From a bacterium (GTDB lineage Bacteria; Patescibacteriota; Minisyncoccia; Phycocordibacterales; UBA5272), in NCBI GenBank assembly GCA_023267595.1, contig JAHFNB010000003.1:2165-66164 (forward strand): DNA of 64,000 bases, read 5' to 3'. Numbering within the stretch: position 1 is the first letter of the stretch; each line of letters opens with the position of its first letter. The position numbers and the translations under genes are program-made. Shown one piece after another: positions 2-14,808 of this stretch. The notes under the pieces are model-generated. The model made no database searches. It saw nothing but the letters and a program-made list of their open reading frames with translations, and was not told where the DNA came from.

Positions 2-3000
2 ACTGCACCAGTTGGGACTCTTTCTCAGGTTACTATAACTGGCGCTCCGACAGTTACAGCAGGTGCTACATCAATTAGGCGACAAGATGGTAGATATTTG
101 GTGCTACCAGGAGCAGCAAACAGTTCATCAATTTATGATCCTGTGTCAACGGGATCAAATGCAAGTGGTACATGGCTTACCTATTCTGTTGGATCATCTG
201 TTGCACTTGGTGATGCTGCTCAGGCTATATGGCGACAAGATGGCAAATATTTATTGCTAAATGGCAGTACAACAGATCTTACACTTATCGATCCAGGAGC
301 AAGCAGTGTTCTTCCTCAATTTACAGCACATGGAAGCCCTGTTGTACCTATTACTGGTGGAAAGACTGGCCCTGGACAGACTGCATTTATGTTGCCAGAT
401 GGTAGATATGCAATTGCTATAGGTGGAGCATCCACTACTCTTGCGCTCTATGATATAGGTTATATACGTGGTGGTGATGATGCCGGAGTAAAATTATCAT
501 CATACGAAACAGAATGTATTACAAATAGTAATATAAATGATCGCTCCACTATAAATTGGAACGCAAATTCTGAAGGATCTATTACGGTAAAAGTTAAACT
601 AGGGCAGGGAGCATGTACAAGTGTTTATAAAAATATAAATAAGAGTGGAGATTTAATCGGTGCAACATCTACTACAGACAGTATTCAGATAAAAGTATTT
701 TTTAAACGTAATCTTCCACAATTCTTAGATCAAGAATGGGGAATACGAAAGCAAGGTCTAGTTCGTTATCGAAGAAATAATGCTGACCCAGTATTGTATG
801 ATATATCAGTAGATAATGGTGCAGCATTTCATAAAACACAGTTTGATCTTGGAAATATTGCTTCTACTTCAACTGCATCGACTTCTGCATCAGGACCGGT
901 ATCTGTAAATATTGTTAATGACAAGACTGGTATGGCTATTGCTCTTGCAAATGGTATCGGTATTGGAAGTACTCAAACAACAGGTACTGGAGTTGGATAT
1001 TATCAAGGTGCATCACAATCACACAACGCACTTCAAGTTGCAGATGGAACAAGTACAATAGTAATGAAAAGACCAGATGGAAAATTTGTTATTATAACAG
1101 GAAGTAATACTACAAATTCTCAAATTTATGACCCAGATACAGAAGTATTTACCAATGAAGCAAATAAACCAACAACAAATATAGGACCTGGAGGAATTGC
1201 CTTCAAGCGCCCAGACGGAAACTTTTTTATAGTTATGGGTAATGGTACAAATGTCACGAATATATATGATCCTATTGCAAACATATATAGTGCCGGACCA
1301 AACCTTACCGGTACTGCAGGTAAAGGAGCACAATTTATCCCACTACCTACTGGTCGCGTACTTGTCCTTCATGGTAACTTCACTGCAACTACGACTATTT
1401 ATGATCCAATACAAAATGTAACAATATCTGGTCCACCAGTTCTTTCAAACAGTGCTACGCTTGTACAACCTGTAGGTGCTGGTTCTCTTGTTATTCCAAA
1501 TGCAGATGGCACGTTCTTTATTTCTACTGGAATGCTTTCTGAAAACTGTGCATCAGGTACAGCAGTTGGTTCTGCAATGTTATTTGATCCTTATAATATG
1601 GCATTTTCAAGTAGTACATCACTTGCATTTACTACATCAGGTCCAGGTCCAGGTGCATTTACTTTCCAAAGATCTGATGGTATTTGGGTTATAGGTAAGG
1701 GTATCTCACTTATTGGTTGTGCTCCACACGTTGTAGCCGCAGGTCTTGAATTATATAATCCTGTAACGAAACGTCTTGCTTCTGCAGGTACGTTACTTAC
1801 AACGACTCTTGGTTATGGAGCACACGCAGTGCCTAGACCTGATGGTACCTGGGCAATTTACCATGGTGCTAACATTGCTGGAGCCACGATGAACGGCTCT
1901 ACGACGATGAGTATTTATGTTCCAACGTTAGGTGCATTTATTACAAACGTCAATGCCCCAGCAGGTCTAATTATTCAAGGACCACCGGCATTTACCCCTA
2001 TTCATCAAGGGGCTACTTCATTCCAGCGTGATGATGGAAAGTTCGTAACAATTGCAGGTGCTGCTACAACATCAGCAGCAGGTGTTACGACAACAATTTT
2101 GTATGATGCTGGTTGGGTTTCAAAAGGAACATATAAATCAGAACAAGTAAATATTTCAGGAATGGATACTAACTCAACATTGGTTTGGAAATCAAACGGT
2201 GTACCAGGAATCTCTGCTGAAGTCCGCACTGCAGCCAACCAAGCAGCACTAGGTACTTCAACTCAACGTGATGTTGGAGTTTCTGGTGGATTAATTAATC
2301 CTGCAACAGGTGACACATGGTTCCAAGTAAATTTTAATTTCAAGCGTCAATTCCCATCATATGGAGGTATTTATACTGATGTGTGGTATGGAAATAGTGG
2401 TGGTAATATGCCAGCATCATCTAGAACAATACTTACTCCAACTGTTTATGAATATAAGGTTACAGAAGACAAGGATTTAATTAATTTACAAGCAGATGGA
2501 TTGTCGATGTTTAGAGTGAATTCAACAGGAGATGTATTTACTCAAGTGGGCGCGACGATTAATACTTCAGGTGCCGATCTTGCAGAACGTTATAAGTCGC
2601 GAGAGGTGCTTCAAAAAGGTGAAGTTGTATCTATCGACCCACAAAATAATCATGGTGTGAAGAAAACTGCGTATCAGTATCAACCAGATATGCTTGGAGT
2701 TGTCTCTACAGATCCAGGATTCGTAACTGGTGCATATACTGAAGATTCATATCCAATTGCTCTCATTGGACGTGTTCCAGTAAAAGTAACAACAGAAAAT
2801 GGGATGATACATACAGGTGACTACTTAACATCTGCAAGTGTTCCAGGATATGCAATGAAGGCATCTCTTGCTGGCCGTGTTATTGGTAAAGCCCTTGAGT
2901 CATTAGATGAACGTAAACTTACTGATTGTCCTACAAGTTCTATACTTGTTCCATACAGAAAATGTGGAACTGTTATGATGTTTGTGTCATTAATTGATTT

Positions 3001-4327
3001 TAATGGAGAGTCTATAGATGTTGCTATGAATGACTGGAAAGTAAAGCAGGCATCAATACAGGCTCTTGGTACTGATGCAGGACTTGATATTGCTACATCA
3101 TCTGAAAGTGCATTTGCAACAAATGATGTAGGTAGTCAGTTTATATTCTCAGATACTCGATCATCACAAGTAATGCAGTTCTTGATTGCATTACAAAAAG
3201 AAAGAGATGCAGGTTCAACATCAAAATCAGAAATCTTTGCCGATAGTATTAGTGCTACAGGAGAGGTTATTAGTCCAAAAATAATTACAACACTTATTGA
3301 AGCACGTAGTGGAAAGTTTGGCGTAATCGATGGTCTCTCTATTAATACAGGAACACTTGTTGCAGACACAGTTGTTACCAATACAATTAGTTCAACAAAT
3401 GGTGGTATCACAATGCAATTATTAGCAGACGGCAGATTAGTCCTTAAGAGAATGAATACTGCTTCTACAACTATATCTACCGCATCAACAACTGAAGGAA
3501 TGGTTCTTGGAGATGCAACATCAACAATGGCAACATCTTCTATAGAAACTGCATCAACAACAGAGGATATTATTATCTCATTTGATAATCAAGGTAATGT
3601 ATTCTTTGATGGATCACTTGTTGCAAAGAAAGTATCTACTGGAGCACTGGATGTATCTGGTACTGCAAAGTTCACAGGTGGTCTTGAGGTAACATCTATT
3701 GGTAACGCTAGTTCAAGTATGAATATCTTAAGTGATACATTCTTCTTTGGACGTCCATACTTTACCACAGATACTGGTGGAACTGCAATAATCAAGAAGG
3801 GCGCTGTACGTGTTGAAGTTACTTTTGAACGAGAATATATAGAAACACCAATTATCAATGCATCAGTTGTTTTTGCCACATCAACAACAGATGAACAAAT
3901 CAATTCATTCTTTAACGATGGTGTTCAATTTGTGATCACAAAACGTACAACACAAGGATTCACTATCCTCATTAATAAACCTTCAAGTAATGATATAGTA
4001 TTTAACTGGACCGCGCTTGCAGTTAAAGATTCAAAAGAGTTTACTTCAAAATCAGTTCCAGAAAATATTCCAGATATAACGACAAACACTATACCTACTC
4101 TGGAATCAGATAGTACCTCTACCCCAATAACAAGTACATCAACTGATTCTATTGTGCCGGATACAGCATCTTCTACAAGTTCAAGTACACCTGAGATCAT
4201 TCCAACAGCAATAGATACGAGTGAATCTATTTCTCCGGATATCTTAATTCCCATAACATCTCCACCCGAAGAAACCGAGGTCTCATCACCAGTTATCCCT
4301 AACGAAAATCCTGTTACAACACCATAA
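2..4327 (+). CDS. Giant secreted surface protein, 5'-truncated by window edge. At least 10 tandem ~47-aa beta-propeller-like repeats (consensus R/KxDGxxxxxxGxxxTxIYDP), a central tail-fibre/adhesin-like region and an S/T/P-rich C-terminal tail.
   Basis: Frame 2 is open from nt 2 and already contains a repeat unit (RRQDGRYLVLPGAANSSSIYDP) upstream of the first Met at 98. Repeats with DG(K/R)(Y/F) and IYDP recur through ~nt 2100. Residues ~1330-1409 are low-complexity Ser/Thr/Pro. No TGA/TAA/TAG for 4.3 kb. Confidence 0.7.
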   Translation, partial: TAPVGTLSQVTITGAPTVTAGATSIRRQDGRYLVLPGAANSSSIYDPVSTGSNASGTWLTYSVGSSVALGDAAQAIWRQDGKYLLLNGSTTDLTLIDPGASSVLPQFTAHGSPVVPITGGKTGPGQTAFMLPDGRYAIAIGGASTTLALYDIGYIRGGDDAGVKLSSYETECITNSNINDRSTINWNANSEGSITVKVKLGQGACTSVYKNINKSGDLIGATSTTDSIQIKVFFKRNLPQFLDQEWGIRKQGLVRYRRNNADPVLYDISVDNGAAFHKTQFDLGNIASTSTASTSASGPVSVNIVNDKTGMAIALANGIGIGSTQTTGTGVGYYQGASQSHNALQVADGTSTIVMKRPDGKFVIITGSNTTNSQIYDPDTEVFTNEANKPTTNIGPGGIAFKRPDGNFFIVMGNGTNVTNIYDPIANIYSAGPNLTGTAGKGAQFIPLPTGRVLVLHGNFTATTTIYDPIQNVTISGPPVLSNSATLVQPVGAGSLVIPNADGTFFISTGMLSENCASGTAVGSAMLFDPYNMAFSSSTSLAFTTSGPGPGAFTFQRSDGIWVIGKGISLIGCAPHVVAAGLELYNPVTKRLASAGTLLTTTLGYGAHAVPRPDGTWAIYHGANIAGATMNGSTTMSIYVPTLGAFITNVNAPAGLIIQGPPAFTPIHQGATSFQRDDGKFVTIAGAATTSAAGVTTTILYDAGWVSKGTYKSEQVNISGMDTNSTLVWKSNGVPGISAEVRTAANQAALGTSTQRDVGVSGGLINPATGDTWFQVNFNFKRQFPSYGGIYTDVWYGNSGGNMPASSRTILTPTVYEYKVTEDKDLINLQADGLSMFRVNSTGDVFTQVGATINTSGADLAERYKSREVLQKGEVVSIDPQNNHGVKKTAYQYQPDMLGVVSTDPGFVTGAYTEDSYPIALIGRVPVKVTTENGMIHTGDYLTSASVPGYAMKASLAGRVIGKALESLDERKLTDCPTSSILVPYRKCGTVMMFVSLIDFNGESIDVAMNDWKVKQASIQALGTDAGLDIATSSESAFATNDVGSQFIFSDTRSSQVMQFLIALQKERDAGSTSKSEIFADSISATGEVISPKIITTLIEARSGKFGVIDGLSINTGTLVADTVVTNTISSTNGGITMQLLADGRLVLKRMNTASTTISTASTTEGMVLGDATSTMATSSIETASTTEDIIISFDNQGNVFFDGSLVAKKVSTGALDVSGTAKFTGGLEVTSIGNASSSMNILSDTFFFGRPYFTTDTGGTAIIKKGAVRVEVTFEREYIETPIINASVVFATSTTDEQINSFFNDGVQFVITKRTTQGFTILINKPSSNDIVFNWTALAVKDSKEFTSKSVPENIPDITTNTIPTLESDSTSTPITSTSTDSIVPDTASSTSSSTPEIIPTAIDTSESISPDILIPITSPPEETEVSSPVIPNENPVTTP

Positions 4328-4349
4328 TCTATGATAAAATTAAACGTAT

Positions 4350-4766
4350 ATGAAAACATCAGTTGCTATTAAATCTTCAAAAATTGTAAAGTTAGAAGAA
4401 ACGAAAACAAAATTACAGGCATTACTTACTGCAAAAAATGGAATGATTGTCCTTATCCTTGTTTGTCTTTTTTCTTTAGGATTTGGAATGTATTTTTATC
4501 AAAAAGCAAATAATAATCCACAAAAGATTGCACAACAAGACTTAGAAGATACTATTGCTGCAGTTGGTAAACTTATGGTTCTTCCAGTAGGGGAAGTTCC
4601 AACACTTGCAACTGTTTCAGATCCAGAAAAATTACGTGATCAATCTTTCTTTGCTAATGCAAAAAAGGATGACAAAGTCCTAATTTATAGTACTGCAGGT
4701 AAAGCCATTCTCTACAACCCATCATCAAATAAAATTGTAGAAGTTTCTCCACTGAAGAGTCGATAG
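4350..4766 (+). CDS. Hypothetical single-pass membrane protein
   Basis: 138-aa ORF 23 nt after the giant protein stop. One hydrophobic helix (IVLILVCLFSLGFGMYFY) then a soluble domain. Confidence 0.5.
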   Translation: MKTSVAIKSSKIVKLEETKTKLQALLTAKNGMIVLILVCLFSLGFGMYFYQKANNNPQKIAQQDLEDTIAAVGKLMVLPVGEVPTLATVSDPEKLRDQSFFANAKKDDKVLIYSTAGKAILYNPSSNKIVEVSPLKSR

Positions 4767-4824
4767 TCTACAAAGAATAGTTTATCCAGTTTATTTTTTG
4801 TAGTAATAGGGTATCATAGTAACT

Positions 4825-6168
4825 ATGAAATCTCGTTTAGGAATTATCTTATGTGGTATTGGTATTTCCTTCTGTATCCCAGCCATTTCCCTTGCACAAG
4901 AGTCTACATCAACATCATTTAAAATGTTTGACCCTGTGATTGCACCGGGTGGATTTGCTACATCTACAAGTTTTCAATTATGGAGCACACTTACGGAAAT
5001 TGCTACAGGATTTAGTTCATCAACACTTTTTCAACTCGGCGCAGGGTTTTTGCGATATCCACTTGTTTCTACACCTATTGTTTCTGCTACTGCAGGAGAT
5101 GCACAAGTATTTTTGTCATGGACTGCTTCTCAAGGGTTTTGGCATATCATGCCTTCTACGTATATGCTCGGACGATCTACTATTTCAGGTGGTCCATACA
5201 CATTTAGTTCAGTTGGTTTTGGTTCTACCGTTACCGGTCTTACAAATGGAACCACCTATTATTTCGTCGTGCGTGTTCATGATGTAGATGGAAATGTATT
5301 GGCAACGTCGACTCAAGTCTCTGCTACACCACAAGCAGCAAGTAGTGGCGGTGGAGGCGGTGGAGGCGGTGGAGGCGGTGGAGGCGGTGGAGGCGGTGGA
5401 GGCGGTGGAGGCGGAGGCGCTAGTACACCAACGGCAACTGCAGTTGTATTTTATGGAAGAGCCTATCCAAAAAGTATTGTAACGTTACTTAAAGACGCAC
5501 AAATTGCAGCAACTACAATTGCAGGAGCAGACGCAAATTTCCAGATAAGTTTGTCAGGTATTTCTTCAGGGAATTATATTTTTTCATTATATGGTGAAGA
5601 TAATAAAGGTTTGCGATCATCACTTCTTTCTTTTCCGGTAAGTGTGACGCAAGGTGCTACAACCCAAGTCACTGGTATTTTTATTACACCAACTATTGAT
5701 GTAGATAAAAGTGAAGTACGACAAGGAGATAACATTGCAATTTTTGGACAAAGTACACCTCGTTCAGAAATTATTATAAGTGTGCATTCTGATGAAGAAT
5801 ATTTCCAAAAAAAGACATCAGATAATAATGGTGCATATCTTTTTAATTTTGATACATCAGTTCTTGAAATGGGACAACATCAAACAAAATCGAAGACATC
5901 ACTTGATGGAGAAATTAGTGCTTTTAGCCAAGTGATTGGATTTTTAGTTGGTACGAAAAATGTAGCAGCACTTACAAAAAAGAAAATTTTAAAAGGAGAT
6001 CTTAATAAAGATGGAAAAGTAAACTTAATAGATTTTTCTATTGCTTCGTTTTGGTATAGACGTCCACTTTCAGAATCATTTAAAGCAATTGAAATAGAAC
6101 GTTTAAATGCAGATGGAAAAGTTGATTTAAAAGATTTCAGTATTATGGCATTTTATTGGACCGGGTAA
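4825..6168 (+). CDS. Secreted protein with signal peptide, 24-residue poly-Gly linker and C-terminal type-I dockerin-like duplicated Ca-binding repeats
   Basis: N-terminal signal peptide (GIGISFCIPAISLAQE). C-terminus has two dockerin repeat segments, DLNKDGKVNLIDFS and LNADGKVDLKDFS. Gly24 run encoded by a 9-bp tandem repeat. Confidence 0.7.
   Translation: MKSRLGIILCGIGISFCIPAISLAQESTSTSFKMFDPVIAPGGFATSTSFQLWSTLTEIATGFSSSTLFQLGAGFLRYPLVSTPIVSATAGDAQVFLSWTASQGFWHIMPSTYMLGRSTISGGPYTFSSVGFGSTVTGLTNGTTYYFVVRVHDVDGNVLATSTQVSATPQAASSGGGGGGGGGGGGGGGGGGGGGGGGASTPTATAVVFYGRAYPKSIVTLLKDAQIAATTIAGADANFQISLSGISSGNYIFSLYGEDNKGLRSSLLSFPVSVTQGATTQVTGIFITPTIDVDKSEVRQGDNIAIFGQSTPRSEIIISVHSDEEYFQKKTSDNNGAYLFNFDTSVLEMGQHQTKSKTSLDGEISAFSQVIGFLVGTKNVAALTKKKILKGDLNKDGKVNLIDFSIASFWYRRPLSESFKAIEIERLNADGKVDLKDFSIMAFYWTG
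5347..5418. repeat. Tandem 9-bp microsatellite (GGCGGTGGA) x7 perfect plus one imperfect copy, encoding poly-Gly
   Basis: ggcggtgga repeated head-to-tail from 5347 to 5409, then ggcggaggc. The alternative frames give the VEAVEA and GGGG artefact ORFs at 4940 and 5288. Confidence 0.95.
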
Positions 6169-6172
6169 CTTT

Positions 6173-7042
6173 ATGAATCATTTTTTTAAAAAATTAGTAC
6201 TATGCTTTCTTATCGGTATGACATATATACCTGTTTTTGCTGCATCTATTACACAAAATGTGTCCTCTACATCATATATGGAAGGCGAAGAGTTTTTAGT
6301 TCGTTACACTATTGGAACAGATGGAAAGTATGTTAATACAGTAGACGGAACAATCACATACCCACATGATCTCTTGGAGGTACAAGAGATTAGAGACGGT
6401 AATTCTATTATCAATTTCTGGGTACAACATCCTACTATAGATATACAAGGGATATCTTTTTCAGGGATCATTCCTGGAGGATATCAAGGGGAAGATGCTT
6501 TCTTGTTTTCTGTTCTTTTTAAAGCAAAAAAAACAGGAAAAGGGACACTTGCAGTTACGAATGTAGAAATGTTAGAAAATGATGGCAAAGCATCAAAACT
6601 TCTGGTAAGAAGTAAGATACTTACCTATAGTATTAGAAAAAATGAAAGCAGTGTTCCACCAACTGTGTTATTTGTACAAGAGTCAACAATGCCTGAAGCA
6701 TTTAAAGCAGAAATAGGACAATCAAGTGATATTGCACACGGTAACTATTTTCTTACGTTTGCAACACAGGATAAAGGGTCGGGTATTAGCCACTATGAAG
6801 TAAAAGAAGGATTATTTGGTACTTATGCTACGGCAACAAGTCCCTATGTGTTACTAAATCAAAATCTTGATACAAAGATTTATGTAAAAGCAGTTGATAA
6901 AGATGGGAATGAACGAATAGAGGTTCTTTACCCACAAAATTGGCATCCATGGTATAGTAATTATATCATTAGTATCTTTATATTTGGTCTGCTATTTTAT
7001 CTCTATAAAATAGCAGAGGCGTACCTACCAAAGAGATTATAG
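6173..7042 (+). CDS. Membrane-anchored cohesin-like domain protein (signal peptide, cohesin-like beta-sandwich, C-terminal TM helix)
   Basis: Signal peptide (LVLCFLIGMTYIPVFAAS). Region FLVRYTIGTDGKYVNTVDGTITYPHDLLEV...FSVLFKAKKTGKGTLAVTNVEMLENDG matches the cohesin-type pattern and is paralogous to the N-terminus of the 8225 ORF. C-terminal hydrophobic helix (IISIFIFGLLFYLY). Confidence 0.5.
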   Translation: MNHFFKKLVLCFLIGMTYIPVFAASITQNVSSTSYMEGEEFLVRYTIGTDGKYVNTVDGTITYPHDLLEVQEIRDGNSIINFWVQHPTIDIQGISFSGIIPGGYQGEDAFLFSVLFKAKKTGKGTLAVTNVEMLENDGKASKLLVRSKILTYSIRKNESSVPPTVLFVQESTMPEAFKAEIGQSSDIAHGNYFLTFATQDKGSGISHYEVKEGLFGTYATATSPYVLLNQNLDTKIYVKAVDKDGNERIEVLYPQNWHPWYSNYIISIFIFGLLFYLYKIAEAYLPKRL

Positions 7043-7061
7043 TATACTTATTCTATAATCC

Positions 7062-8093
7062 ATGACTTCTTTTTTGATGTATCTGAGAGAAAATAAGGCA
7101 TCTAGATTTTTTATAGGAGGTGTTATCGTACTCTCTTTTTTTACAGGTATTATTTTTGATGTTTTACTATTACACAAAGTATCTTTTTTTTACTCGAATA
7201 CAAAATGTCTTTCCAATTTAAAATTTGTTAATCCAGAACCAGAATGTGATTTGTATGAAGATAAATTAGAGAGAATGAATACCCTTCAGAATGATTTAGG
7301 GGTAAAAATTAATGGCTATATAGATACCAAACGTGCAACAAAAATAGCAGTATTCACACGAGATTTAAACTCTCAACGATTTGCCGGAGTTAACGATGCA
7401 GAGATTTTCTATATGGCATCTCTCCTTAAGGTTCCTCTTGCAATTGCATATTATCGTTTATCTGAAATTACTTCAGATATTCTTGACCAGAAGATAGTCT
7501 ATAAAGATGTTTCTGATACAGGTATGGAATATTCTTTTCAAAATATTCCTGATTCAAAAAAATTAGTGGAAGGAAAAGAATACACAGTTCAAAAACTTTT
7601 GTTTAATACCCTTGCATATTCTGATAACTCTACGGCTCAATTATTGTTAAATGGGTATATTTCTGAAGATTATTTGCAAAAAATATTGCTTGCTATTGGT
7701 TTACAGGTAAGTAAAAATGGAATGCCTGAAAATCTAGTAACTGCAAAATCATATGCTGGGGTATTTCGTATACTGTACAATGCTTCGTTTTTACAACGAG
7801 AGACGTCTAATGCTATCTTAAAGATATTGTCAGATAGTGGTTTTGCTAATGGTGCAACGAAAAAATTACCAAAGGATATTGTTGTCGCACATAAGTTTGG
7901 AGAAAGAACAATTCTGGATCCTGTTACAAAACAGGTTGTGTCACGACAATTACATGATTGTGGTATTGTCTATGCAAAGGATGGAAAAGAACCATACACA
8001 TTTTGTATTATGACAGAAGGAGAGGATTTTAAAGATTTAGAAACAATTCTACAAGATATATCACTTGAAATTTATCAAGGGATTGTCGAATAG
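7062..8093 (+). CDS. Class A beta-lactamase-like serine hydrolase (membrane-anchored)
   Basis: S-x-x-K motif in FYMASLLKVPLA. SDN motif in YSDNSTAQLLL (compare SDNTAANLLL of class A enzymes). Degenerate KTG motif (HKFGE). N-terminal TM helix. Confidence 0.6.
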   Translation: MTSFLMYLRENKASRFFIGGVIVLSFFTGIIFDVLLLHKVSFFYSNTKCLSNLKFVNPEPECDLYEDKLERMNTLQNDLGVKINGYIDTKRATKIAVFTRDLNSQRFAGVNDAEIFYMASLLKVPLAIAYYRLSEITSDILDQKIVYKDVSDTGMEYSFQNIPDSKKLVEGKEYTVQKLLFNTLAYSDNSTAQLLLNGYISEDYLQKILLAIGLQVSKNGMPENLVTAKSYAGVFRILYNASFLQRETSNAILKILSDSGFANGATKKLPKDIVVAHKFGERTILDPVTKQVVSRQLHDCGIVYAKDGKEPYTFCIMTEGEDFKDLETILQDISLEIYQGIVE

Positions 8094-8224
8094 TAAACTG
8101 TTGAAAACTTTTACGTACATGAATATTTGTAACGTATACTAGTTGGTATGTAGAGATGCATCTTTTGTATGTATCTTATGCAAAAACTTTGAGTACATTT
8201 TCACCAACATTATTTTCATATAGA

Positions 8225-9922
8225 ATGATTTTGCGCATTTTTTTGTCATCTCTATTTTTTTTCACATCGTTACAAAGTGTAAGTGCTGCCAATCTTATTA
8301 TAGTGCCTAGTGGAGGATCCTATAGTGCAGGAAGTTCTTTTTCTGTGAATATTTCTGTGTCAAATAATCAAGATCCTATTAATGGAGTTTCAGGAGTTGT
8401 TTCATTTTCTACTGATACACTTGAACTAACTTCAATTTCAAAATCAGGATCCATAATGACCATGTGGGCAGAAGAGCCGACATTTTCTAATGCAACAGGA
8501 CGTGCTTCTTTTGAAGGTGTTATCTTTAATCCAGGATTTAATGGTTCACAAGGGAAAATTATAGCACTTAACTTTAGAGCAAAAAGAGCGGGTACTGCAA
8601 CAGTAACACTTACTGGTGGATCTGTGCTTGCTAATGATGGTAATGCAACAAATGTCTTAGGTACATTAGGTTCATCAACGTTCACGATAAGCGATGGTGT
8701 TGTAAAAGATACCGTAAAAGAGCCAACCACAACAAAAACAACATCAGGAAATACCCCTGTCATAACCTCATCGTCATATCCTGATAGTACAAAGTGGTAT
8801 AACTCAAAAGATGCATCATTTGCATGGACTGTATCATCATCAGTAACTGCGGTTCGAACTCTGTATGATGAAAATGAAGATGGTACTCCTAATAAAGTAT
8901 ATGATCCACCTATTAATAATCGTTCGTTTACTGTAGATGGTGATGGAGTTATGTATATGCATGTGCAGTTTAAAACTGGAGGCGGATGGGGAAGTATTGC
9001 ATCGTATAAGTTCCAAGTTGATACAGATGCACCAGAAACATTAAAAGCAACATTTCCTGATGGCACAATAACAACGAACCCTACTCCTGCTATTTTAGTA
9101 ACCGCGGCCGATAAACTCTCTGGTGTTGATCGTATTACTATGGCAATAGATGGTAGTGATCCTGTTACGTATACTATTGATCCATCTAACTTGTATCGTT
9201 TGCCAAAACAACTTTCTGGTAAACATACAGTTGTTATCGGTGCTATAGATAAAGCAGGAAACAGTAGTACAGTTTCACTTGAGTACACAATACAAACAAT
9301 AGCAGTGCCTGTTATTACACAATATACGAAACATATTGAACTTGGAGGAACATTGCATATAGAAGGGACAACCTATCCTTCTACTATTGTAGAACTTACC
9401 ATGATTGATAAAGAGGGTACTTCTCAGGTGGAAACTACAACAGCAGATGAATCAGGTATATTTACACTCTCATGGTCAAAGAAATTAGAAACTGGAATAT
9501 TTGATTTAAAGGCTCGTGCAGTAAATCAGAAAGGTGCTATGAGTGATTATTCTGAGCCAAAGACAATCGTTATTGATAACGTTCCTCTTATACGATTAGG
9601 AATATTTATTATGAATTGGTTATCTCTGGTTCTTATAGTAATTCTCGGATTAGTTGCTATTATTGCAACCTTCTGGTTCTCTTTCACACAATTTGGTAGA
9701 TTTAGAAGAAAAGTTCGCCGTACTATGCTTGAAGCAGAAAATACATTGAAAACTAACGTACAGGGATTGCGGCGAGATGTAGAAGAGTTCCATACACTTC
9801 TCATCAAAGCAGAACGTAAACGAAAACTTACCAAAGAAGAGCAAGCAATCTTGAAAAAGTTTAAGAAACGAATTGATACTATAGAAAAAGAAATAGAAAA
9901 TAAACTAGATGCTATAGGATAG
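8225..9922 (+). CDS. Surface protein: signal peptide, cohesin-like domain, Ig-like domains, C-terminal TM helix and cytoplasmic coiled-coil tail. ORF is open from 8156; Met 8225 begins the signal peptide.
   Basis: MILRIFLSSLFFFTSLQSVSA signal peptide. ANLIIVPSGGSY...VSGVVSFSTDTLELTSI...IIALNFRAKRAGTATVTLTGGSVLANDG is a cohesin-like segment paralogous to the 6173 ORF. TM helix LSLVLIVILGLVAIIATFWF, then a K/E-rich coiled coil. Confidence 0.5.
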   Translation: MILRIFLSSLFFFTSLQSVSAANLIIVPSGGSYSAGSSFSVNISVSNNQDPINGVSGVVSFSTDTLELTSISKSGSIMTMWAEEPTFSNATGRASFEGVIFNPGFNGSQGKIIALNFRAKRAGTATVTLTGGSVLANDGNATNVLGTLGSSTFTISDGVVKDTVKEPTTTKTTSGNTPVITSSSYPDSTKWYNSKDASFAWTVSSSVTAVRTLYDENEDGTPNKVYDPPINNRSFTVDGDGVMYMHVQFKTGGGWGSIASYKFQVDTDAPETLKATFPDGTITTNPTPAILVTAADKLSGVDRITMAIDGSDPVTYTIDPSNLYRLPKQLSGKHTVVIGAIDKAGNSSTVSLEYTIQTIAVPVITQYTKHIELGGTLHIEGTTYPSTIVELTMIDKEGTSQVETTTADESGIFTLSWSKKLETGIFDLKARAVNQKGAMSDYSEPKTIVIDNVPLIRLGIFIMNWLSLVLIVILGLVAIIATFWFSFTQFGRFRRKVRRTMLEAENTLKTNVQGLRRDVEEFHTLLIKAERKRKLTKEEQAILKKFKKRIDTIEKEIENKLDAIG

Positions 9923-9956
9923 GTTCCGTATATTCTAATGATATAATAGGTATATT

Positions 9957-11615
9957 ATGAATGGGTCAACCTCTATGCTCTATGCCAAAGATTTAACAAA
10001 TCTCATTTCTGGTGATGTATCAGTAGCAGAGGGAGAAAGAGAAAAAGTCGCGCGTGATACAAGTTTATTTTATGTAAAACCAGAGATTGTTATTTTTCCG
10101 AAAAATAGGGATGATATTTCTCATGTTCTTTCATATGTTCATGCTATAAAAGCAAAAGGCGGAAATCTTTCAGTTACCATGCGTGCTGCAGGAACTTGTA
10201 TGACGGGTGGTCCACTATCTTCATCTATTGTAATTGATACTACACGATATATGAATCATATAGGAGAGGTAACCAAAGAGTCTGCCATTGCAGAATCTGG
10301 AGTGTATTATCGTGATTTTGAAAAAGAAACTCTTAAAAAGGGTTGGCTTATGCCTAGTTATCCTGCATCACGTGAGTTAGCAGCAATTGGAGGTATTGTG
10401 TCAAATAATTCTGGTGGAGAAAAGACACTTGTGTATGGAAAAACAGAAAAGTATATCAAAGCACTTGATGTTGTTTTTGCAGATGGTAGTTCAGATACAC
10501 TTTGTCCTCTTACAAGACAAAATCTTGAAGTAAAGATGAAAGAACAAAGTGAGAGTGGAAGGATACATAGAGAATTGTTTGCTCTTATTGATAATAATTA
10601 TGAAATAATTAAACAAGCAAAACCATCTGTGTCCAAAAACTCCTCCGGATATTATCTATGGAATGTATATGATAAAGAAAAAGATATTTTTGATATAACA
10701 AAAGTAGTAGTTGGCTCTCAAGGAACACTTACTTGTATATCATCTGCAACGGTAACTGGTGTGCAAGTAAAAGAACATTCTCGAATGCTTGTTATGTTTT
10801 TACCAACAACATCACACTTAGGAGAGATTATTCCACAAATACTTAAGCATAAACCAGAAACACTTGAATCCTATGATGATCATACCTTTAAAATAGCAGT
10901 TCGATTTTTCAAAGATATTGCACTTCGTATGGGGGGAGATATGTTTACGTTAGGATTTCAATTTTTACCAGAGTTTTGGATGGTTGTAACAGGAGGCGTA
11001 CCAAAAATAATTCTTATGGCAGAGTTCACAGGAGAATCTGAAGAAGAGGTAGAACAACAAGTACAAACTGCCTATGATGATATGAAGCAGTTTGATCTTC
11101 CAATAAAACGTACAAAAAATGCTTTAGAATCAAAGAAGTATTGGACATTTCGTCGAGAGAGTTTTAATCTTCTTCGTACTCGCTTACAAGGATACCGTAC
11201 TGCACCTACCATTGATGATATTATTGTTCATCCAAAAGATTTACCAGAGTTTTTGCCACAATTAGAGACTATTTTTTCAAAATATGATTTGATATATACC
11301 ATTGCAGGACATATGGGGGATGCTAATTTTCATGTTATTCCACTTGTTAATCTTCATAAAGAGGGGATTGTAGATCAATTACATAAACTTATGGACGAAG
11401 TGTACGACTTGGTACTTTCTTATAATGGTTCTATTTCTGCAGAACATAATGATGGATTATTGCGCACTTCATATCTTTCAAAAATGTTTACTCCAGAAGT
11501 TATTTCACTTTTTGAAAAGACAAAAGACATCTTTGATCCACTTCATATTTTAAATCCTATGAAGAAAGTGTATCCTGACAAAGAATTTGCATGGAGTCAT
11601 ATTGATACCAAATAA
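9957..11615 (+). CDS. FAD-binding oxidoreductase, PCMH-type FAD-linked oxidase family (GlcD / D-lactate dehydrogenase-like)
   Basis: FAD-binding PCMH signature (VIFPKNRDDISHVLSYVHAIKAKGGNLSVTMRAAGTCMTGG; GGIVSNNSGGEKTLVYGKT). C-terminal FAD-oxidase C-domain length and HxD motif (GHMGDANFHV). Confidence 0.75.
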   Translation: MNGSTSMLYAKDLTNLISGDVSVAEGEREKVARDTSLFYVKPEIVIFPKNRDDISHVLSYVHAIKAKGGNLSVTMRAAGTCMTGGPLSSSIVIDTTRYMNHIGEVTKESAIAESGVYYRDFEKETLKKGWLMPSYPASRELAAIGGIVSNNSGGEKTLVYGKTEKYIKALDVVFADGSSDTLCPLTRQNLEVKMKEQSESGRIHRELFALIDNNYEIIKQAKPSVSKNSSGYYLWNVYDKEKDIFDITKVVVGSQGTLTCISSATVTGVQVKEHSRMLVMFLPTTSHLGEIIPQILKHKPETLESYDDHTFKIAVRFFKDIALRMGGDMFTLGFQFLPEFWMVVTGGVPKIILMAEFTGESEEEVEQQVQTAYDDMKQFDLPIKRTKNALESKKYWTFRRESFNLLRTRLQGYRTAPTIDDIIVHPKDLPEFLPQLETIFSKYDLIYTIAGHMGDANFHVIPLVNLHKEGIVDQLHKLMDEVYDLVLSYNGSISAEHNDGLLRTSYLSKMFTPEVISLFEKTKDIFDPLHILNPMKKVYPDKEFAWSHIDTK

Positions 11616-11652
11616 GTTTGTATTTTTACGGGGATTTCGTATACTTCATAGT

Positions 11653-12009
11653 ATGAAAATAATTCATGGGATTTACCACATATTTGATCTCTTAGAAGAT
11701 AAAATACGTGCAGGGTTATCACGACATGCTTTTATCTATACGTTTGTGGGAGGGACAGGTATTGTTTTATTTTGGCGAGGAGTATGGCATACAGCAGATA
11801 TTTTAGAAAGAAAAGGTGGTGTATGGGGGGTTATGTTTTCATCTGGTGGGTCACTGTTGCTTGGTGTTTGTATTTTGCTTGCTACAGGACTTTTTGTTTC
11901 TATGTTTATCGGAGATTCAATTATTATTTCAGGAATTAATAAAGAAAAAAAGAAGATTGAGAAAGTAATTGAAGAAGTAAGTGAAGTAGAAAAAGAAGTT
12001 ACTATATAA
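11653..12009 (+). CDS. Hypothetical small membrane protein. ORF is open from 11587 and overlaps the upstream gene; Met 11653 is the likely start.
   Basis: Two hydrophobic segments and a K/E-rich tail. No recognisable family. Confidence 0.4.
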   Translation: MKIIHGIYHIFDLLEDKIRAGLSRHAFIYTFVGGTGIVLFWRGVWHTADILERKGGVWGVMFSSGGSLLLGVCILLATGLFVSMFIGDSIIISGINKEKKKIEKVIEEVSEVEKEVTI

Positions 12010-12013
12010 TCTT

Positions 12014-12523
12014 TTATTCAGATTTTTTTGTCATCATGATTACTTGTACTTTTCTATACTCTGCATGCCAACCAATGTTATTAGCAAGAAGTTGAAGTAT
12101 AGAAGCAAAAGATGCAATTGCTAAGAATAGAAACAAGAAATAACTATTTGGAATCATTAAAAATACAAAGAGTGAACACAATGAAATCCAAACTCCCATA
12201 CACCACGGACATGTTGCCAGTTTATAGAGTGTTGCTTTTAGCGAGTTCTTGGATTCCACAAAAGAATAGTAACCATGTTCTTCTACGGTATCCATTAACC
12301 CTTCACGTATAAATAGAAAAACATTATCGTAGACAAAAAGACGAATCATTCGAAATACTGCAAGTGTGATGATACACAGATTTAATATAGAGATTGTTTC
12401 AGGGAGTTTACCTGTAGTATATAAAACTTTATAAAACAGTATCATTGTCCCCATAAATACAATAATAAAGAAAATATTCCATTTTTTAATGTTATTTTGA
12501 AGTATATAATCTTTCGCATTCAT
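12014..12523 (-). CDS. Small polytopic membrane protein with CxWC motif (DUF1360-like, tentative)
   Basis: 169 aa with 3-4 TM helices. LATCPWCMGVW motif resembles the Cys-x-W-Cys motif of DUF1360-family membrane proteins. Convergent with the 11653 gene. Confidence 0.4.
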   Translation of the reverse strand: MNAKDYILQNNIKKWNIFFIIVFMGTMILFYKVLYTTGKLPETISILNLCIITLAVFRMIRLFVYDNVFLFIREGLMDTVEEHGYYSFVESKNSLKATLYKLATCPWCMGVWISLCSLFVFLMIPNSYFLFLFLAIASFASILQLLANNIGWHAEYRKVQVIMMTKKSE

Positions 12524-12655
12524 ATAAGATCAGTATAGCATTTCTATGTGGGTGTATTTTTGTAAGAAAACTCTGATATTTTCGTCATTATATATACATC
12601 CCTACACGATATGGGAATTACTTATTAAAGTGGCACACATAATTAAAAAATATAT

Positions 12656-13516: not shown

Positions 13517-14806
13517 ATGTATAAAACAATACTTTCTCTTTCATGTATCGCCTTAATTCTTGTAGTTGGTACTTTCTATTTTAAATACCGTAGTTCTCCC
13601 CAAAAAGAACTTGCAGTTACTACATCATTACCTATTTTACTCTATCCAGAAAGTGGGGAAGTAACCTTTAAAATTTTAGGAAGTACATCATTTCAAATAG
13701 CAACGTCTTCTCCTACAATAATTCCTAACCAAACAATAGTTCATACAGAGACTGGTAAAGCATCTGTCCTTTTACCAGATAACTCCATGATTTCTCTTGA
13801 TACAAATACTGAAATAACAATAAATTATTCATCATCTAAGACTTCTGTGTATCAAACATTAGGGACAACATATCACCGTGTGCAGACACTTCTTACAGGA
13901 TCTAGTTATCAAGTACAAACACCAGGAACACTTGCAGCAGTTCGTGGTACAAAGTTTGCTATCAAATATGATTCAAAAACAAAAAAGACAAAAGTTGCTG
14001 TAACAGAACACAATGTTGAAGTTTCTACCATTCCACCTGGTTCTCAAATAACAGGAACTACAACACCATTTACTGAAACTATCTCACTTGGTGAAGGGAA
14101 AACTGTAACCGTTGCTATGGTAACCAAAGTTCCTAAGCAAGGAGAATCTGCGATGCAGATTGCAGATACTGTAAAAGATGATGATATGCGTATATGGGTG
14201 GAGGTTAATAAAAATGATGATAGACGTCTTGATGATATTAAAAAGAATATAAAAAGTGATGAAGATATTCGTGTAGAAATAAAGAAAGAAATATTTAAGG
14301 ATATAAAAGAAGATGTACAATCAGAAGTACTCGATACAAGAAAAGATAGTATTGAAACCAACATTGTTGATAAAAAAGTAAATCTTGATTCTACAAAAAC
14401 AGAAATAAAAACAGAACCAAAACCTATAGTAGAAACAAAACCTACAATAGAGACAAAAACTGAAACTACAGTAAAAACAGATACTACATCAAACACACCT
14501 GTTACCACTTCATCACTTGTAAAAAAAATGGATGAAGAACAGTACTTTAATGGTTTCAATGATATGTTTATTAAATACTTCTATCTGGATGAAAATGATA
14601 CACCATGTATAACTTCTATCTTGCCACAAGAACGTGTTCGTCAGGTTACATCATTTGCAAATACTAATGGATATCCATTTACTTCAACAACGCTTCTTTC
14701 TTTTGCTCAAGCCATACAAGGATATTGTACAAATAAAGATGTTGCTACAAAAATAAAATTACAAGCACGATTTGACGAAGAGTTTCCCTATAAAGACAAC
14801 TTCTAG
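13517..14806 (+). CDS. FecR-domain protein (membrane-anchored) with K/E/T-rich low-complexity linker and C-terminal domain
   Basis: N-terminal TM helix. FecR-like segment ...SYQVQTPGTLAAVRGTKFAIKYD.... Stop lies 2 nt before the CHASE2 cyclase start (operon). Confidence 0.6.
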   Translation: MYKTILSLSCIALILVVGTFYFKYRSSPQKELAVTTSLPILLYPESGEVTFKILGSTSFQIATSSPTIIPNQTIVHTETGKASVLLPDNSMISLDTNTEITINYSSSKTSVYQTLGTTYHRVQTLLTGSSYQVQTPGTLAAVRGTKFAIKYDSKTKKTKVAVTEHNVEVSTIPPGSQITGTTTPFTETISLGEGKTVTVAMVTKVPKQGESAMQIADTVKDDDMRIWVEVNKNDDRRLDDIKKNIKSDEDIRVEIKKEIFKDIKEDVQSEVLDTRKDSIETNIVDKKVNLDSTKTEIKTEPKPIVETKPTIETKTETTVKTDTTSNTPVTTSSLVKKMDEEQYFNGFNDMFIKYFYLDENDTPCITSILPQERVRQVTSFANTNGYPFTSTTLLSFAQAIQGYCTNKDVATKIKLQARFDEEFPYKDNF

Positions 14807-14808
14807 GT

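Follow-up and report, generated by a model that had tools for sequence, protein, structure and literature searches.

A dockerin gene linked to two membrane-anchored cohesin genes in a CPR bacterium: probable parts of a non-cellulosomal docking platform at the cell surface

Anchoring scaffoldins of the OlpA/OlpC type from Clostridium thermocellum (PDB 3ul4, 4dh2) carry single type I cohesins that are bound by type I dockerins. The locus described here resembles them in an envelope-anchored single cohesin and in a C-terminal two-repeat, type-I-like dockerin on a secreted protein (its capture is predicted here); OlpA/OlpC structures were among the best fold matches of the cohesin model, and type I dockerins were the best sequence matches. 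Unlike the SLH repeats of OlpA/OlpC, the anchor is a C-terminal transmembrane (TM) helix, with a cytoplasmic tail in one protein; the dockerin carrier is without enzyme or CBM, each dockerin gene comes with two different anchors, the host belongs to the CPR bacteria and shows no cellulolytic genes in the DNA analysed, and dockerin loop 2 is atypical. The Archaeoglobus fulgidus cohesin 2xdh, the best structural match (E 1.9e-10, TM 0.76, 20% identity), likewise comes from a non-cellulolytic organism and has no assigned biological role; its partner dockerin is encoded nearby. It differs in being archaeal, its likeness to the gene trio below is at module level only, and it is not known to belong to a conserved operon of three genes that encodes membrane-anchored cohesins. 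Clostridium perfringens toxin/glycosidase cohesins (2vo8, 2jh2, 2w1n; Foldseek ranks 13, 29 and 30) offer another likeness, a non-cellulosomal cohesin–dockerin pairing that assembles secreted proteins; there both partners are large glycoside hydrolase modules, whereas here neither partner has a catalytic domain and the cohesins are membrane-anchored.

SEML1_0315 of the saccharibacterium Southlakia epibionticum is a dockerin-domain cell-envelope protein reported as essential, for which adhesion to or degradation of host glycans was speculated and neither a cohesin partner nor an operon was described (Wang et al. 2023, PMC10633639). By description, it and ORF 4825–6168 of the present locus are both CPR dockerin-domain proteins, of different CPR classes. 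No published description of an operon of one dockerin and two cohesin genes was found in the literature.

The window (the whole stretch of DNA analysed, 64 kb) holds five consecutive + strand ORFs at 4350–9922 with spacings of 4–62 nt, directly 3' of a 1409-aa ORF that runs off the window start; the ORF list thus agreed with the five same-strand genes of the earlier note, and its domain calls for this interval all held against Pfam, PDB matches, fold model and translations. Features were assigned as follows:

98..4327, + strand: giant secreted protein, C-terminal 1409 aa, cut by the window start (ORF list; homologous giant genes in relatives)
4350..4766, + strand: small membrane protein, 138 aa; N-terminal TM helix aa 31–50 (nt 4440–4499), ~85-aa external domain
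4825..6168, + strand: dockerin-bearing secreted protein, 447 aa; signal peptide, no membrane anchor; read as adaptor
aa 26–80 of the dockerin protein, + strand: SxNF-motif segment, low-confidence in the AlphaFold model
aa 84–168, nt 5074–5328, + strand: Fn3 domain (AlphaFold pLDDT 80–93)
nt 5341–5421, + strand: 27-Gly linker, disordered in the AlphaFold model
5347..5414, + strand: perfect 9-bp tandem repeat GGCGGTGGA x 7.6, coding for most of the poly-Gly linker
aa 204–378, nt 5434–5958, + strand: two beta-sandwich domains (AlphaFold pLDDT 80–93)
aa 386–447, nt 5980..6165, + strand: type-I-like dockerin module (Pfam Dockerin_1, PDB matches, AlphaFold)
6173..7042, + strand: short cohesin anchor, 289 aa; signal peptide; cohesin domain paralogous with that of the 588-aa ORF
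aa 24–158 of the short anchor, nt 6242–6646, + strand: cohesin domain (BLASTP paralogy to the 588-aa ORF)
aa 195–247, nt 6755–6913, + strand: Ig-like/OmpL47-type domain (NCBIfam OmpL47, below cut-off)
aa ~262–280, nt 6956–7012, + strand: C-terminal TM helix
7062..8093, + strand: serine hydrolase of class-A beta-lactamase fold, 343 aa, membrane-anchored (TM aa 15–37); PF13354
8156..9922, + strand: long cohesin anchor, 588 aa; signal peptide
aa 44–182 of the long anchor, nt 8285–8701, + strand: cohesin (Pfam, AlphaFold, Foldseek)
aa ~200–295, + strand: conserved domain without family assignment
aa 315–373, nt 9098–9274, + strand: OmpL47-type/Ig-like domain
aa 401–474, nt 9356–9577, + strand: Big_13 domain (Pfam E 2e-7)
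aa ~486–510, nt 9611–9685, + strand: TM helix
aa 514–588, nt 9695–9919, + strand: conserved cytoplasmic tail with heptad repeats

Dockerin protein (ORF 4825–6168): The duplicated C-terminal dockerin module of the earlier note was recovered with Pfam Dockerin_1 (PF00404; cut-off 22.9 bits), which gave 23.4 bits on the whole 447-aa protein and 29.4 bits on the tail alone, the alignment covering the first repeat only; phmmer of the last 72 aa against PDB returned type I dockerins as the top 10 matches, with both repeats spanned. Each repeat consists of a loop (DLNKDGKVNLIDF at aa 392–404; (R)LNADGKVDLKDF at aa 426–438) and a helix with DFSI.AF, and a linker helix lies between them; three helices were predicted with pLDDT ~90 (AlphaFold). 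All 18 family members matched Dockerin_1 (best E 1.8e-9), and the family profile retrieved dockerins only as top PDB matches (E 6.9e-7, both repeats covered). Generic EF-hand repeats fit less well: EF-hand models score on the tail below threshold and are outscored by dockerin models in 18/18 members. Both repeats share D-[FL]-S-I-x-A-[FY]; among the type I dockerins already characterised, such symmetry is linked to dual-mode binding. Position 1 of the second Ca-binding loop is Arg instead of Asp, here and in a widespread subfamily, and Ca2+ binding by this loop may therefore be impaired. Foldseek with the model of the protein matched tandem FnIII arrays and no enzyme. Poly-Gly runs of ~5 to 27 residues occupy the same position in homologues. 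Database relatives of aa 200–447 numbered 1194 (65–74% identity), some of them named 'dockerin type I repeat-containing protein' by NCBI.

Cohesin proteins (ORFs 6173–7042 and 8156–9922): The N-domains are paralogous, as had been claimed (BLASTP, 30% identity, E 2e-13). With Pfam Cohesin (PF00963; cut-off 24.1 bits) the isolated N-domain of the 588-aa ORF gave 24.2 bits, and like the dockerin score this barely exceeds the threshold; ORF 6173–7042 stayed below it (13.3 bits). Among 21 aligned N-domain sequences (20 homologues of the 588-aa-ORF cohesin and the N-domain of ORF 6173–7042) 17 matched the model, best E 5e-9. The cohesin of the 588-aa ORF was modelled with pLDDT 95.9 (AlphaFold); Foldseek returned solved cohesins as the top ~36 matches (E down to 1.9e-10, TM 0.7–0.8), A. 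fulgidus 2xdh being followed by type I cohesins crystallised with dockerins, and adhesin and Ig domains appeared at lower ranks. The cohesin-like beta-sandwiches of the earlier note are upheld by these matches together with the paralogy. Conserved residues of both cohesin families fall on strands 3, 5, 6 and 8, the strands with which type I cohesins contact the dockerin in solved complexes; an L-x-N-D-G-x-G-T motif after strand 8 is common to both. NCBIfam OmpL47 on the short anchor gave 27.6 bits (cut-off 40). In the long anchor the Ig-like domains, TM helix and cytoplasmic tail noted before were found again (Big_13; anchor and basic heptad-rich tail in the translation), with GRFRRKVRR directly after the helix (positive-inside). 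In an alignment of 27 orthologues the tail is as conserved as the ectodomain, its invariant residues spanning R522–L584. By the translations, signal peptides are present on the dockerin protein and both cohesin proteins, C-terminal anchors on the cohesin proteins only, an arrangement that fits an extracellular dockerin–cohesin interaction. In the short-cohesin protein of one relative (locus L045) a dockerin repeat replaces the membrane anchor; this natural chimera suggests that dockerin repeat and membrane anchor are interchangeable ways of attachment.

Linkage in relatives: The whole 64 kb contains one dockerin and two cohesins, in line with the self-contained set described earlier. Loci were chosen by the dockerin protein from metagenome contigs (at least 600 pattern matches, at least 519 of them relatives; 80 loci kept). 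Wherever enough sequence was available, the dockerin gene was followed by the short cohesin gene (71/71 independent loci) and accompanied by the long cohesin gene (60/60). A search anchored on the long cohesin found the trio in ~19 of 23 species-representative genomes, and the same trio is present in a Wolfebacteria MAG and other Parcubacteria contigs. These counts support the view that the three genes form one set; conservation of the full five-gene order was not borne out, only dockerin/short cohesin/long cohesin being kept. In two genomes (L001/L006 and L024) neither a dockerin nor a short cohesin gene lies within 10 kb of the long cohesin gene, which can therefore, at least by genomic position, exist apart from the trio. 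Downstream neighbours vary (FAD oxidase in the near clade; tRNA-modification gene or glycosyltransferase elsewhere). Distance-matrix correlations of the dockerin with either cohesin (r 0.63–0.68) were no higher than for any other pair and carry no co-evolution signal beyond shared ancestry.

Upstream genes: At least two sets precede the trio among related loci. The first, as in this genome, comprises giant protein, hydrolase and small TM protein(s); giant genes stand before small TM, dockerin and both cohesin genes in L002, L004/5, L039/41, L045, L081, L091/92 and L106. The dockerin gene is immediately preceded by one to three small TM genes in all 'giant-type' loci (8/8) and never in the other configuration; the SxNF+Fn3 N-terminus of the dockerin protein likewise occurs in 8/8 and in 0/26, respectively, only ~6 of the eight loci being independent. 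Because its N-terminal part changes together with the upstream genes, the dockerin protein is read as an adaptor; the association with cargo may only reflect two sub-lineages. The second set, found in most related loci and with no member in this window, consists of several ~365-aa paralogues and a ~330-aa membrane protein with a C-terminal TM helix and weak WxLIP_PGBD (DUF916) matches (E ~0.01). This layout of paralogous secreted proteins and a DUF916-like protein before the trio is reminiscent of the WxL/Csc clusters of Lactobacillales, which combine WxL proteins with a DUF916 'WxL-interacting protein'; the DUF916 matches are, however, below the Pfam threshold, and the C-terminal domain common to the paralogues gave no WxL, Pfam or PDB match. 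The resemblance is taken as a lead, not as membership.

Accessory and giant proteins: ORF 7062–8093 matched Beta-lactamase2 (PF13354) with E 6.9e-31, as expected for the class A beta-lactamase-like hydrolase called before; it failed the NCBIfam equivalog bla_class_A (76.8 bits, cut-off 200). Two motifs, SxxK and SDN, are kept without change across the family; HK[FI]G stands in place of KTG, and conservation is lacking at the position equivalent to Glu166. The protein looks closer to a PBP than to a true beta-lactamase, and its substrates are probably, at a guess, peptidoglycan-like. Its position between the cohesin genes, described as embedded, holds for this genome only: in relatives the gene is missing or lies upstream, either behind the giant gene or as the first of the operon. 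The small TM protein had no match in Pfam or NCBIfam. In the part of the giant protein inside the window the sole Pfam match was a weak H_lectin, and the C-terminus of the protein shows no anchor.

Cellulosomes are defined by their cohesins and dockerins, and cellulosomal modules gave the best matches in sequence and structure; a minimal cellulosome, or another enzyme complex that degrades polysaccharides, is nevertheless highly improbable. The one dockerin sits on a protein made up otherwise of Fn3/Ig-like modules; with one cohesin apiece, the cohesin proteins are not multi-cohesin scaffoldins; the names of the closest homologues place the host in Parcubacteria/CPR; and the five genes and the 20 other largest window ORFs gave no GH, CBM, PL or CE domain, in agreement with the non-cellulosomal reading of the earlier note. 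Joint work of the trio at the surface without dockerin–cohesin contact is a less remote alternative, though an unlikely one: the dockerin would then be an EF-hand-like module stabilised by Ca2+, with some other ligand or none, and direct binding of glycans or host-surface ligands would fall to the cohesin-like sandwiches. The sub-threshold EF-hand scores, the missing position-1 Asp of loop 2, the borderline Pfam scores of both modules, the generic beta-sandwich nature of the cohesin fold with adhesin and Ig domains among lower matches, and the lack of a co-evolution signal all suit it; against it stand the preference for dockerin models in every family member, with top PDB matches that are dockerins only over both repeats, ~36 consecutive bona fide cohesins as top fold matches, and the strict one-dockerin/two-cohesin linkage, which is hard to explain without module interaction.

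Somewhat less probable again is that the module signals rather than merely anchors, with the long cohesin protein serving mainly as a transmembrane sensor; whether the dockerin protein occupies its cohesin, or an external ligand competes for that site, would be passed on via the coiled-coil tail to a partner inside the cell. Tail conservation equal to that of the ectodomain, the occasional occurrence of the long cohesin gene without the other two and an ECF-type sigma factor gene directly downstream in one distant locus (L031) point this way. That adjacency is, however, confined to the one locus, downstream neighbours differ between lineages, the tail shows no recognisable signalling domain (only sub-threshold DUF matches in Pfam), and oligomerisation or positioning would equally account for its conservation.

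Since the trio is found together in relatives, ORFs 4825–6168, 6173–7042 and 8156–9922 probably form a docking platform on the cell surface that has nothing to do with cellulose breakdown, with the dockerin protein as adaptor. The two cohesin proteins would be exported by their N-terminal signal peptides and held in the cytoplasmic membrane by the single C-terminal helix, each thus showing one cohesin atop an Ig-like stalk; the long one would add its ~75-residue tail, which resembles a coiled coil. The dockerin protein, predicted to be a secreted Fn3/Ig-like chain with a flexible poly-Gly hinge and no anchor of its own, would be retained on the cell by binding of its dockerin to one or both neighbouring cohesins; we infer this binding and its stoichiometry, and any role in host attachment is conjectural. 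In the 'giant-type' version, the accessory members would be the small TM protein and the hydrolase of beta-lactamase fold. What varies in the system is the set of upstream genes and the N-terminal part of the dockerin protein; the core of that protein is 65–74% identical across several Parcubacteria lineages, which suits a conserved platform more than an adhesin that evolves fast. The adaptor would couple lineage-specific large surface proteins (candidate cargo here, the giant protein 98–4327; in most relatives, the set of ~365-aa paralogues) to invariant membrane anchors.

The surface genes are five consecutive forward-strand ORFs, all confirmed as the earlier note had listed them:

4350-4766, + strand, small TM protein, 138 aa
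4825-6168, + strand, dockerin protein, 447 aa
6173-7042, + strand, short cohesin protein, 289 aa
7062-8093, + strand, beta-lactamase-fold hydrolase, 343 aa
8156-9922, + strand, long cohesin protein, 588 aa

The ORFs are separated by 4–62 nt, and the block is preceded by a 1409-aa ORF (the giant protein) that is cut at the window start. In a consensus scan of positions 3800-12600, promoter- and terminator-like sites were not enriched within the block (fewer than in shuffled sequences); this is compatible with co-transcription, yet is no evidence for it. Source names of the closest homologues were Candidatus Paceibacterota, Nomurabacteria, Kaiserbacteria, Wolfebacteria and Parcubacteria; G+C content of the window is ~35%. 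Both indicate that the genome is of the Parcubacteria/CPR type. ORF 4350-4766, with a single TM helix and a domain outside the membrane, gave no family match in Pfam or NCBIfam.

Dockerin protein (ORF 4825-6168): two dockerin repeats, DLNKDGKVNLIDFSIASFWY and RLNADGKVDLKDFSIMAFYW, occupy the last 62 residues. Pfam Dockerin_1 (PF00404) scored 23.4 bits with the whole protein and 29.4 bits with the isolated tail (cut-off 22.9), by which the dockerin call made earlier passed the Pfam check; 18/18 orthologous family tails matched the same model (best E 1.8e-9). In a phmmer search of the tail against the PDB the ten best matches were type I dockerins, aligned over both repeats; a profile of the 18 orthologous tails reached a type I dockerin at E 6.9e-7, both repeats being spanned. 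When the whole protein was the query, poly-Gly linkers of engineered proteins dominated the PDB matches, and this search was set aside for the one with the tail alone. Type I was defined by two tandem repeats of ~22 residues, each with a 12-residue Ca2+ loop (D1, N/D3, D5, D/N9, D12) followed by a helix. Repeat 1 (DLNKDGKVNLID) has the canonical loop; repeat 2 (RLNADGKVDLKD) has Arg, not Asp, at loop position 1, as has the consensus of the widespread subfamily. Three helices (aa 401-410, 417-426 and 435-446; AlphaFold, pLDDT ~90), the expected number, are predicted. The two repeats are near-symmetrical, a property that underlies the dual binding mode in known dockerins.

The remainder of the protein consists of a signal peptide, a 55-residue segment with repeated S-x-N-F-like motifs (low-confidence model), an Fn3 domain, a linker of 27 Gly and two beta-sandwich domains. 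No catalytic module was found in it by Pfam, AlphaFold model or Foldseek, only Fn3/Ig-like modules. Matches of the N-terminus (aa 24-172) among 1.84 billion representatives were dominated by the Fn3 domain, of which giant proteins carry several copies; little was returned on the SxNF segment. A 9-bp unit repeated in perfect tandem at 5347-5414 (GGCGGTGGA × 7.6, 100% matches) encodes the poly-Gly linker. Since the run at this site ranges from about 5 to 27 Gly in homologues, the linker length probably changes via in-frame slippage.

Cohesin proteins (ORFs 6173-7042 and 8156-9922): the N-domains of the two proteins are paralogues (BLASTP, 30% identity, E 2e-13), in agreement with the first inspection. 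The isolated N-domain of ORF 8156-9922 narrowly passed Pfam Cohesin (PF00963; 24.2 bits, cut-off 24.1; profile positions 11-130 of 139), the full-length ORF gave no match to this model, and 17 of the 21 N-domain sequences of the alignment matched (best E 5.3e-9). ORF 6173-7042 scored 13.3 bits, below the cut-off, and is assigned to the cohesins because of its paralogy to the long-cohesin N-domain. The N-domain profile gave nothing significant against PDB sequences (best cohesin match E 0.6); the sequence by itself was too divergent, and a fold search was therefore needed. The AlphaFold2 model of the long-cohesin N-domain, built on the N-domain alignment (pLDDT 95.9, pTM 0.89), is a nine-stranded beta-sandwich (jelly-roll) superposable on solved cohesins, the form expected of the family. 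In Foldseek against the PDB the top ~36 matches were cohesins (types I, III and non-cellulosomal; E 2e-10 to 2e-5, TM 0.6–0.8), headed by the non-cellulosomal Archaeoglobus fulgidus cohesin 2xdh (E 1.9e-10, TM 0.76) and followed by type I cohesins solved with dockerins. The predicted cohesin identity thus holds at the level of fold and family, owing to the confident model, the Foldseek matches and the Pfam matches of the family, and is borderline on the scores of the window's own sequences.

Each cohesin protein starts with a signal peptide and has one hydrophobic helix, its membrane anchor, towards the C-terminus. The long one contains, in addition, OmpL47-type and Big_13 Ig-like domains and, after the positive-inside stretch GRFRRKVRR, a cytoplasmic tail that is conserved as much as the ectodomain (27 orthologues). 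Strands 3, 5, 6 and 8 carry conserved residues in both cohesin families, including a common L-x-N-D-G-x-G-T motif; in solved type I complexes these strands form the dockerin-binding face, and their conservation is consistent with predicted docking. Mirror-tree comparison of 53 non-redundant triads (dockerin, adaptor body, two cohesin domains) gave r 0.61–0.72 for all pairs, and the distances did not point to which cohesin co-evolves with the dockerin. In the databases most such cohesin genes are filed as 'hypothetical protein' or 'Bacterial Ig-like domain', and the system is therefore invisible to routine annotation.

Variants of the cohesin genes were seen at several homologous loci. In L045 (metagenome contig Ga0315294_10002975) a short-cohesin paralogue at 7788-8663 has a single dockerin repeat (LSGDGKVNLVDFSIVAFYWTG) in place of the membrane anchor, and is followed by a normal short cohesin and a long cohesin. 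This gene would be either an 'adaptor-scaffoldin-like' cohesin+dockerin chimera or an assembly artefact; as a chimera it would fit the dockerin being an attachment device. One or two extra long-cohesin-type paralogues (350–490 aa) lie between or after the standard pair in loci L033, L059, L063, L065 and L007, so that not every locus has exactly two cohesin anchors.

Gene linkage: two sets of loci were used, one anchored on the long cohesin (23 loci from species-representative genomes, plus contigs obtained by exact protein look-up) and one anchored on the dockerin protein in metagenome contigs. In about 19 of the 23 long-cohesin-anchored loci the dockerin protein gene is followed by the short cohesin, the long cohesin and the FAD-linked oxidase, in that order. 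Loci L001/L006 and L024 (two genomes) have the long cohesin gene without dockerin or short cohesin genes nearby, and L007 has an extra long-cohesin paralogue in their place. The dockerin protein core (aa 200-447) has 1194 database relatives, many at 65–74% identity and some bearing the NCBI name 'dockerin type I repeat-containing protein'; the three contexts examined individually, a Wolfebacteria MAG and a 693-kb contig included, each contained the trio of dockerin protein, short cohesin and long cohesin. In the metagenome scan at least 519 dockerin-protein relatives were confirmed among the 600 pattern matches listed, and 80 loci were kept. With HMMs purpose-built for the two cohesin genes, the short-cohesin gene was found directly downstream in 71/71 of the kept loci having ≥1 kb of downstream sequence, and the long-cohesin gene in 60/60 of those having ≥1.8 kb, both counts being among the matches listed. 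The five-gene order proposed in the earlier note as a conserved unit was not borne out; what is conserved is the trio, accompanied by exchangeable accessory and cargo genes. The docking set of that note gained from the linkage counts and lost the embedded position of its hydrolase, which among the genomes compared was seen in this window only.

Beta-lactamase-fold hydrolase (ORF 7062-8093): an N-terminal TM helix precedes a domain of the PF13354 beta-lactamase fold family (E 6.9e-31). The protein and its operon-linked homologues all keep SxxK and SDN, with HK[FI]G in place of KTG (HKFG in ORF 7062-8093); the residue equivalent to Glu166 varies among these homologues. NCBIfam bla_class_A gave 76.8 bits (cut-off 200), below the level of a class A equivalog. 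Of the initial assignment as a class A beta-lactamase-like hydrolase the fold was retained and the class was not; the protein is better described, on these motifs, as a putative PBP-like serine hydrolase with a beta-lactamase fold. Among the genomes compared its gene lies between the cohesin genes in this window only: locus L002 has two opposite-strand copies upstream of the dockerin gene, seven genomes have one copy as the first gene of the operon, and others lack it in the 10-kb flanks. Its position here is a local rearrangement of a recurrent accessory gene.

FAD-linked oxidase (9957-11615; FAD_binding_4 + FAD-oxidase_C): this gene is 67–76% identical in the near clade, where it is always directly downstream of the long cohesin, even in locus L001 that has no dockerin gene. 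It was considered as a member of the system and rejected, being adjacent in the near clade only and absent from 80/80 dockerin-anchored loci kept among the matches listed; because it is unlinked there it is regarded as a neighbour, and its linkage probably reflects conserved neighbourhood, not function.

Loci L008-L028 form the clade closest to the window by long cohesin. In their dockerin (e.g., L017 8112-9098) the repeats are joined by a short linker, and two conserved Cys (KC-DLN... and ...YC-WTG) are positioned so as to clamp the ends together; the dockerin subtype of the window has neither. Identity to the window in this clade is 36–43% for the dockerin protein and 50–56% for the long cohesin; in more distant lineages the relation is reversed (68–70% and 35–43%, respectively).

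Other genes of the window: a FecR-domain protein and then a CHASE2-adenylate/guanylate cyclase are encoded at 13517-16701, a few kb downstream of the surface module (a FecR gene lies downstream of the trio in L002 as well); a 367-aa Fn3/PhoD_N-like repeat protein (26033-27136, − strand; 32% identity to repeats of a 706-aa protein upstream of the trio of locus L029) adjoins a matrixin-like (Peptidase_M10) gene (25071-25958, − strand), and these two may be further surface or secreted proteins; a 907-aa ORF (51890-54613) had no Pfam match at E ≤ 0.001.

Upstream configurations: the commonest set (L013 1320-8988, L017 174-8148 and most of L008-L028) comprises a protein of ~1100 aa, between two and four paralogues of ~365 aa and, after these, a protein of ~330 aa that has its TM helix at the C-terminus; it may be a fibre or surface-layer gene set. 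The set with ~365-aa paralogues was found in most genome loci and in 26/51 metagenome loci with enough upstream sequence (among the matches listed). The window-type set has a giant protein and from one to three genes for small TM proteins, usually together with the beta-lactamase-like gene. The SxNF+Fn3 N-terminus of the dockerin protein was present in 8/8 giant-type loci vs 0/26 loci of the other type (among the matches listed; two pairs among the eight are near-duplicates), the N-terminus in the latter being a Cys-rich or another module; this association could be due in part to shared ancestry.

The ~365-aa paralogues are arranged in tandem and have a common C-terminal domain of ~170 aa ending ...AGTY..LVYVATANF, for which no WxL, no Pfam match (single members) and no PDB match (profile) were found. 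A WxL/DUF916 (Csc) cluster was considered for the upstream genes of these related loci and rejected: the ~330-aa TM protein matched WxLIP_PGBD (DUF916) at a sub-threshold 16–17 bits (cut-off 27.3), and no WxL domain was found.

The following four-step mechanism is the best-supported reading of these data. The two cohesin proteins would be type I membrane proteins, each displaying one cohesin; the anchor-less dockerin protein would be retained on them via the canonical Ca2+-dependent interaction; its variable N-terminus would couple lineage-specific large surface proteins to the invariant platform; and the poly-Gly tract would serve as the flexible hinge of this adaptor. Binding is predicted, its sole support being the genomic linkage of the dockerin and cohesin genes. 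Less probably, these are surface proteins functioning together with no cohesin–dockerin contact, as the atypical second dockerin loop and the borderline Pfam scores would allow; the perfect linkage of the dockerin and cohesin genes and top matches that are exclusively dockerins and cohesins argue against it. The dockerin may pair with the two cohesins in turn or may bridge them; a 1:2 ternary complex stays speculation because the literature search gave no usable report of one dockerin binding two cohesins at once.

The conserved cytoplasmic tail of the long cohesin protein and the occasional solitary occurrence of its gene suggest a signalling role; no signalling domain or consistent downstream partner was found. 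A cellulosome has dockerins on glycoside hydrolases/CAZymes and scaffoldins with several cohesins and a CBM. The single dockerin here is on a non-catalytic carrier of Fn3/Ig-like modules, neither cohesin protein has more than a single cohesin (the 64 kb encode one dockerin and two cohesins in all), and no GH or CBM was found in the 27 ORFs scanned in the window; a cellulosome is excluded for this window, as the description of a non-cellulosomal set without glycoside hydrolases had anticipated.

Cohesin–dockerin pairs are best known for joining the parts of cellulosomes; modules of both kinds are also widespread outside cellulosomes, where they are known mostly as scattered and uncharacterised. 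The closest mechanistic analogues of the predicted docking set are OlpA and OlpC of Clostridium thermocellum, single-cohesin anchoring proteins to which type I dockerins are attached; their anchors are SLH-based, whereas those here are transmembrane, and enzymes are absent here. The cohesin nearest in structure, that of A. fulgidus, is functionally uncharacterised. Full-text literature searches gave no description of the three-gene operon, nor of cohesins in Parcubacteria/Patescibacteria. What is unfamiliar is not the modules but their architecture, the strict 1:1:1 gene unit, the bacterial group that has it and its likely use. A saccharibacterial envelope protein with a dockerin domain has been reported to be essential (PMC10633639).

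The case for a docking set is now much stronger than could be made from the sequence alone, with binding predicted and a role in adhesion putative; the earlier interpretation as a whole is partly supported. A wider reading, which we think rather unlikely as it stands, would make the trio the invariant core of a Parcubacteria-wide surface-organising machine, in which two membrane-spanning cohesin anchors, one wired to the cytoplasm by a conserved coiled-coil tail, hold the dockerin adaptor, and the exchangeable adaptor N-terminus plugs in lineage-specific giant adhesins or fibre subunits. If this were true, these episymbiont-like bacteria would build their attachment surface chiefly with this machine, and cohesin–dockerin chemistry would be used for cell-envelope architecture, not for enzyme assembly. 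As found, a strictly linked unit of one dockerin and two different membrane-anchored cohesins, with no enzymes, recurs across a large group of ultra-small bacteria that have not been cultured. It gives work on their surface biology and host contact a concrete object, three small expressible domains, and, since upstream genes and adaptor N-terminus change together, a rationale for finding the surface proteins that each lineage displays.
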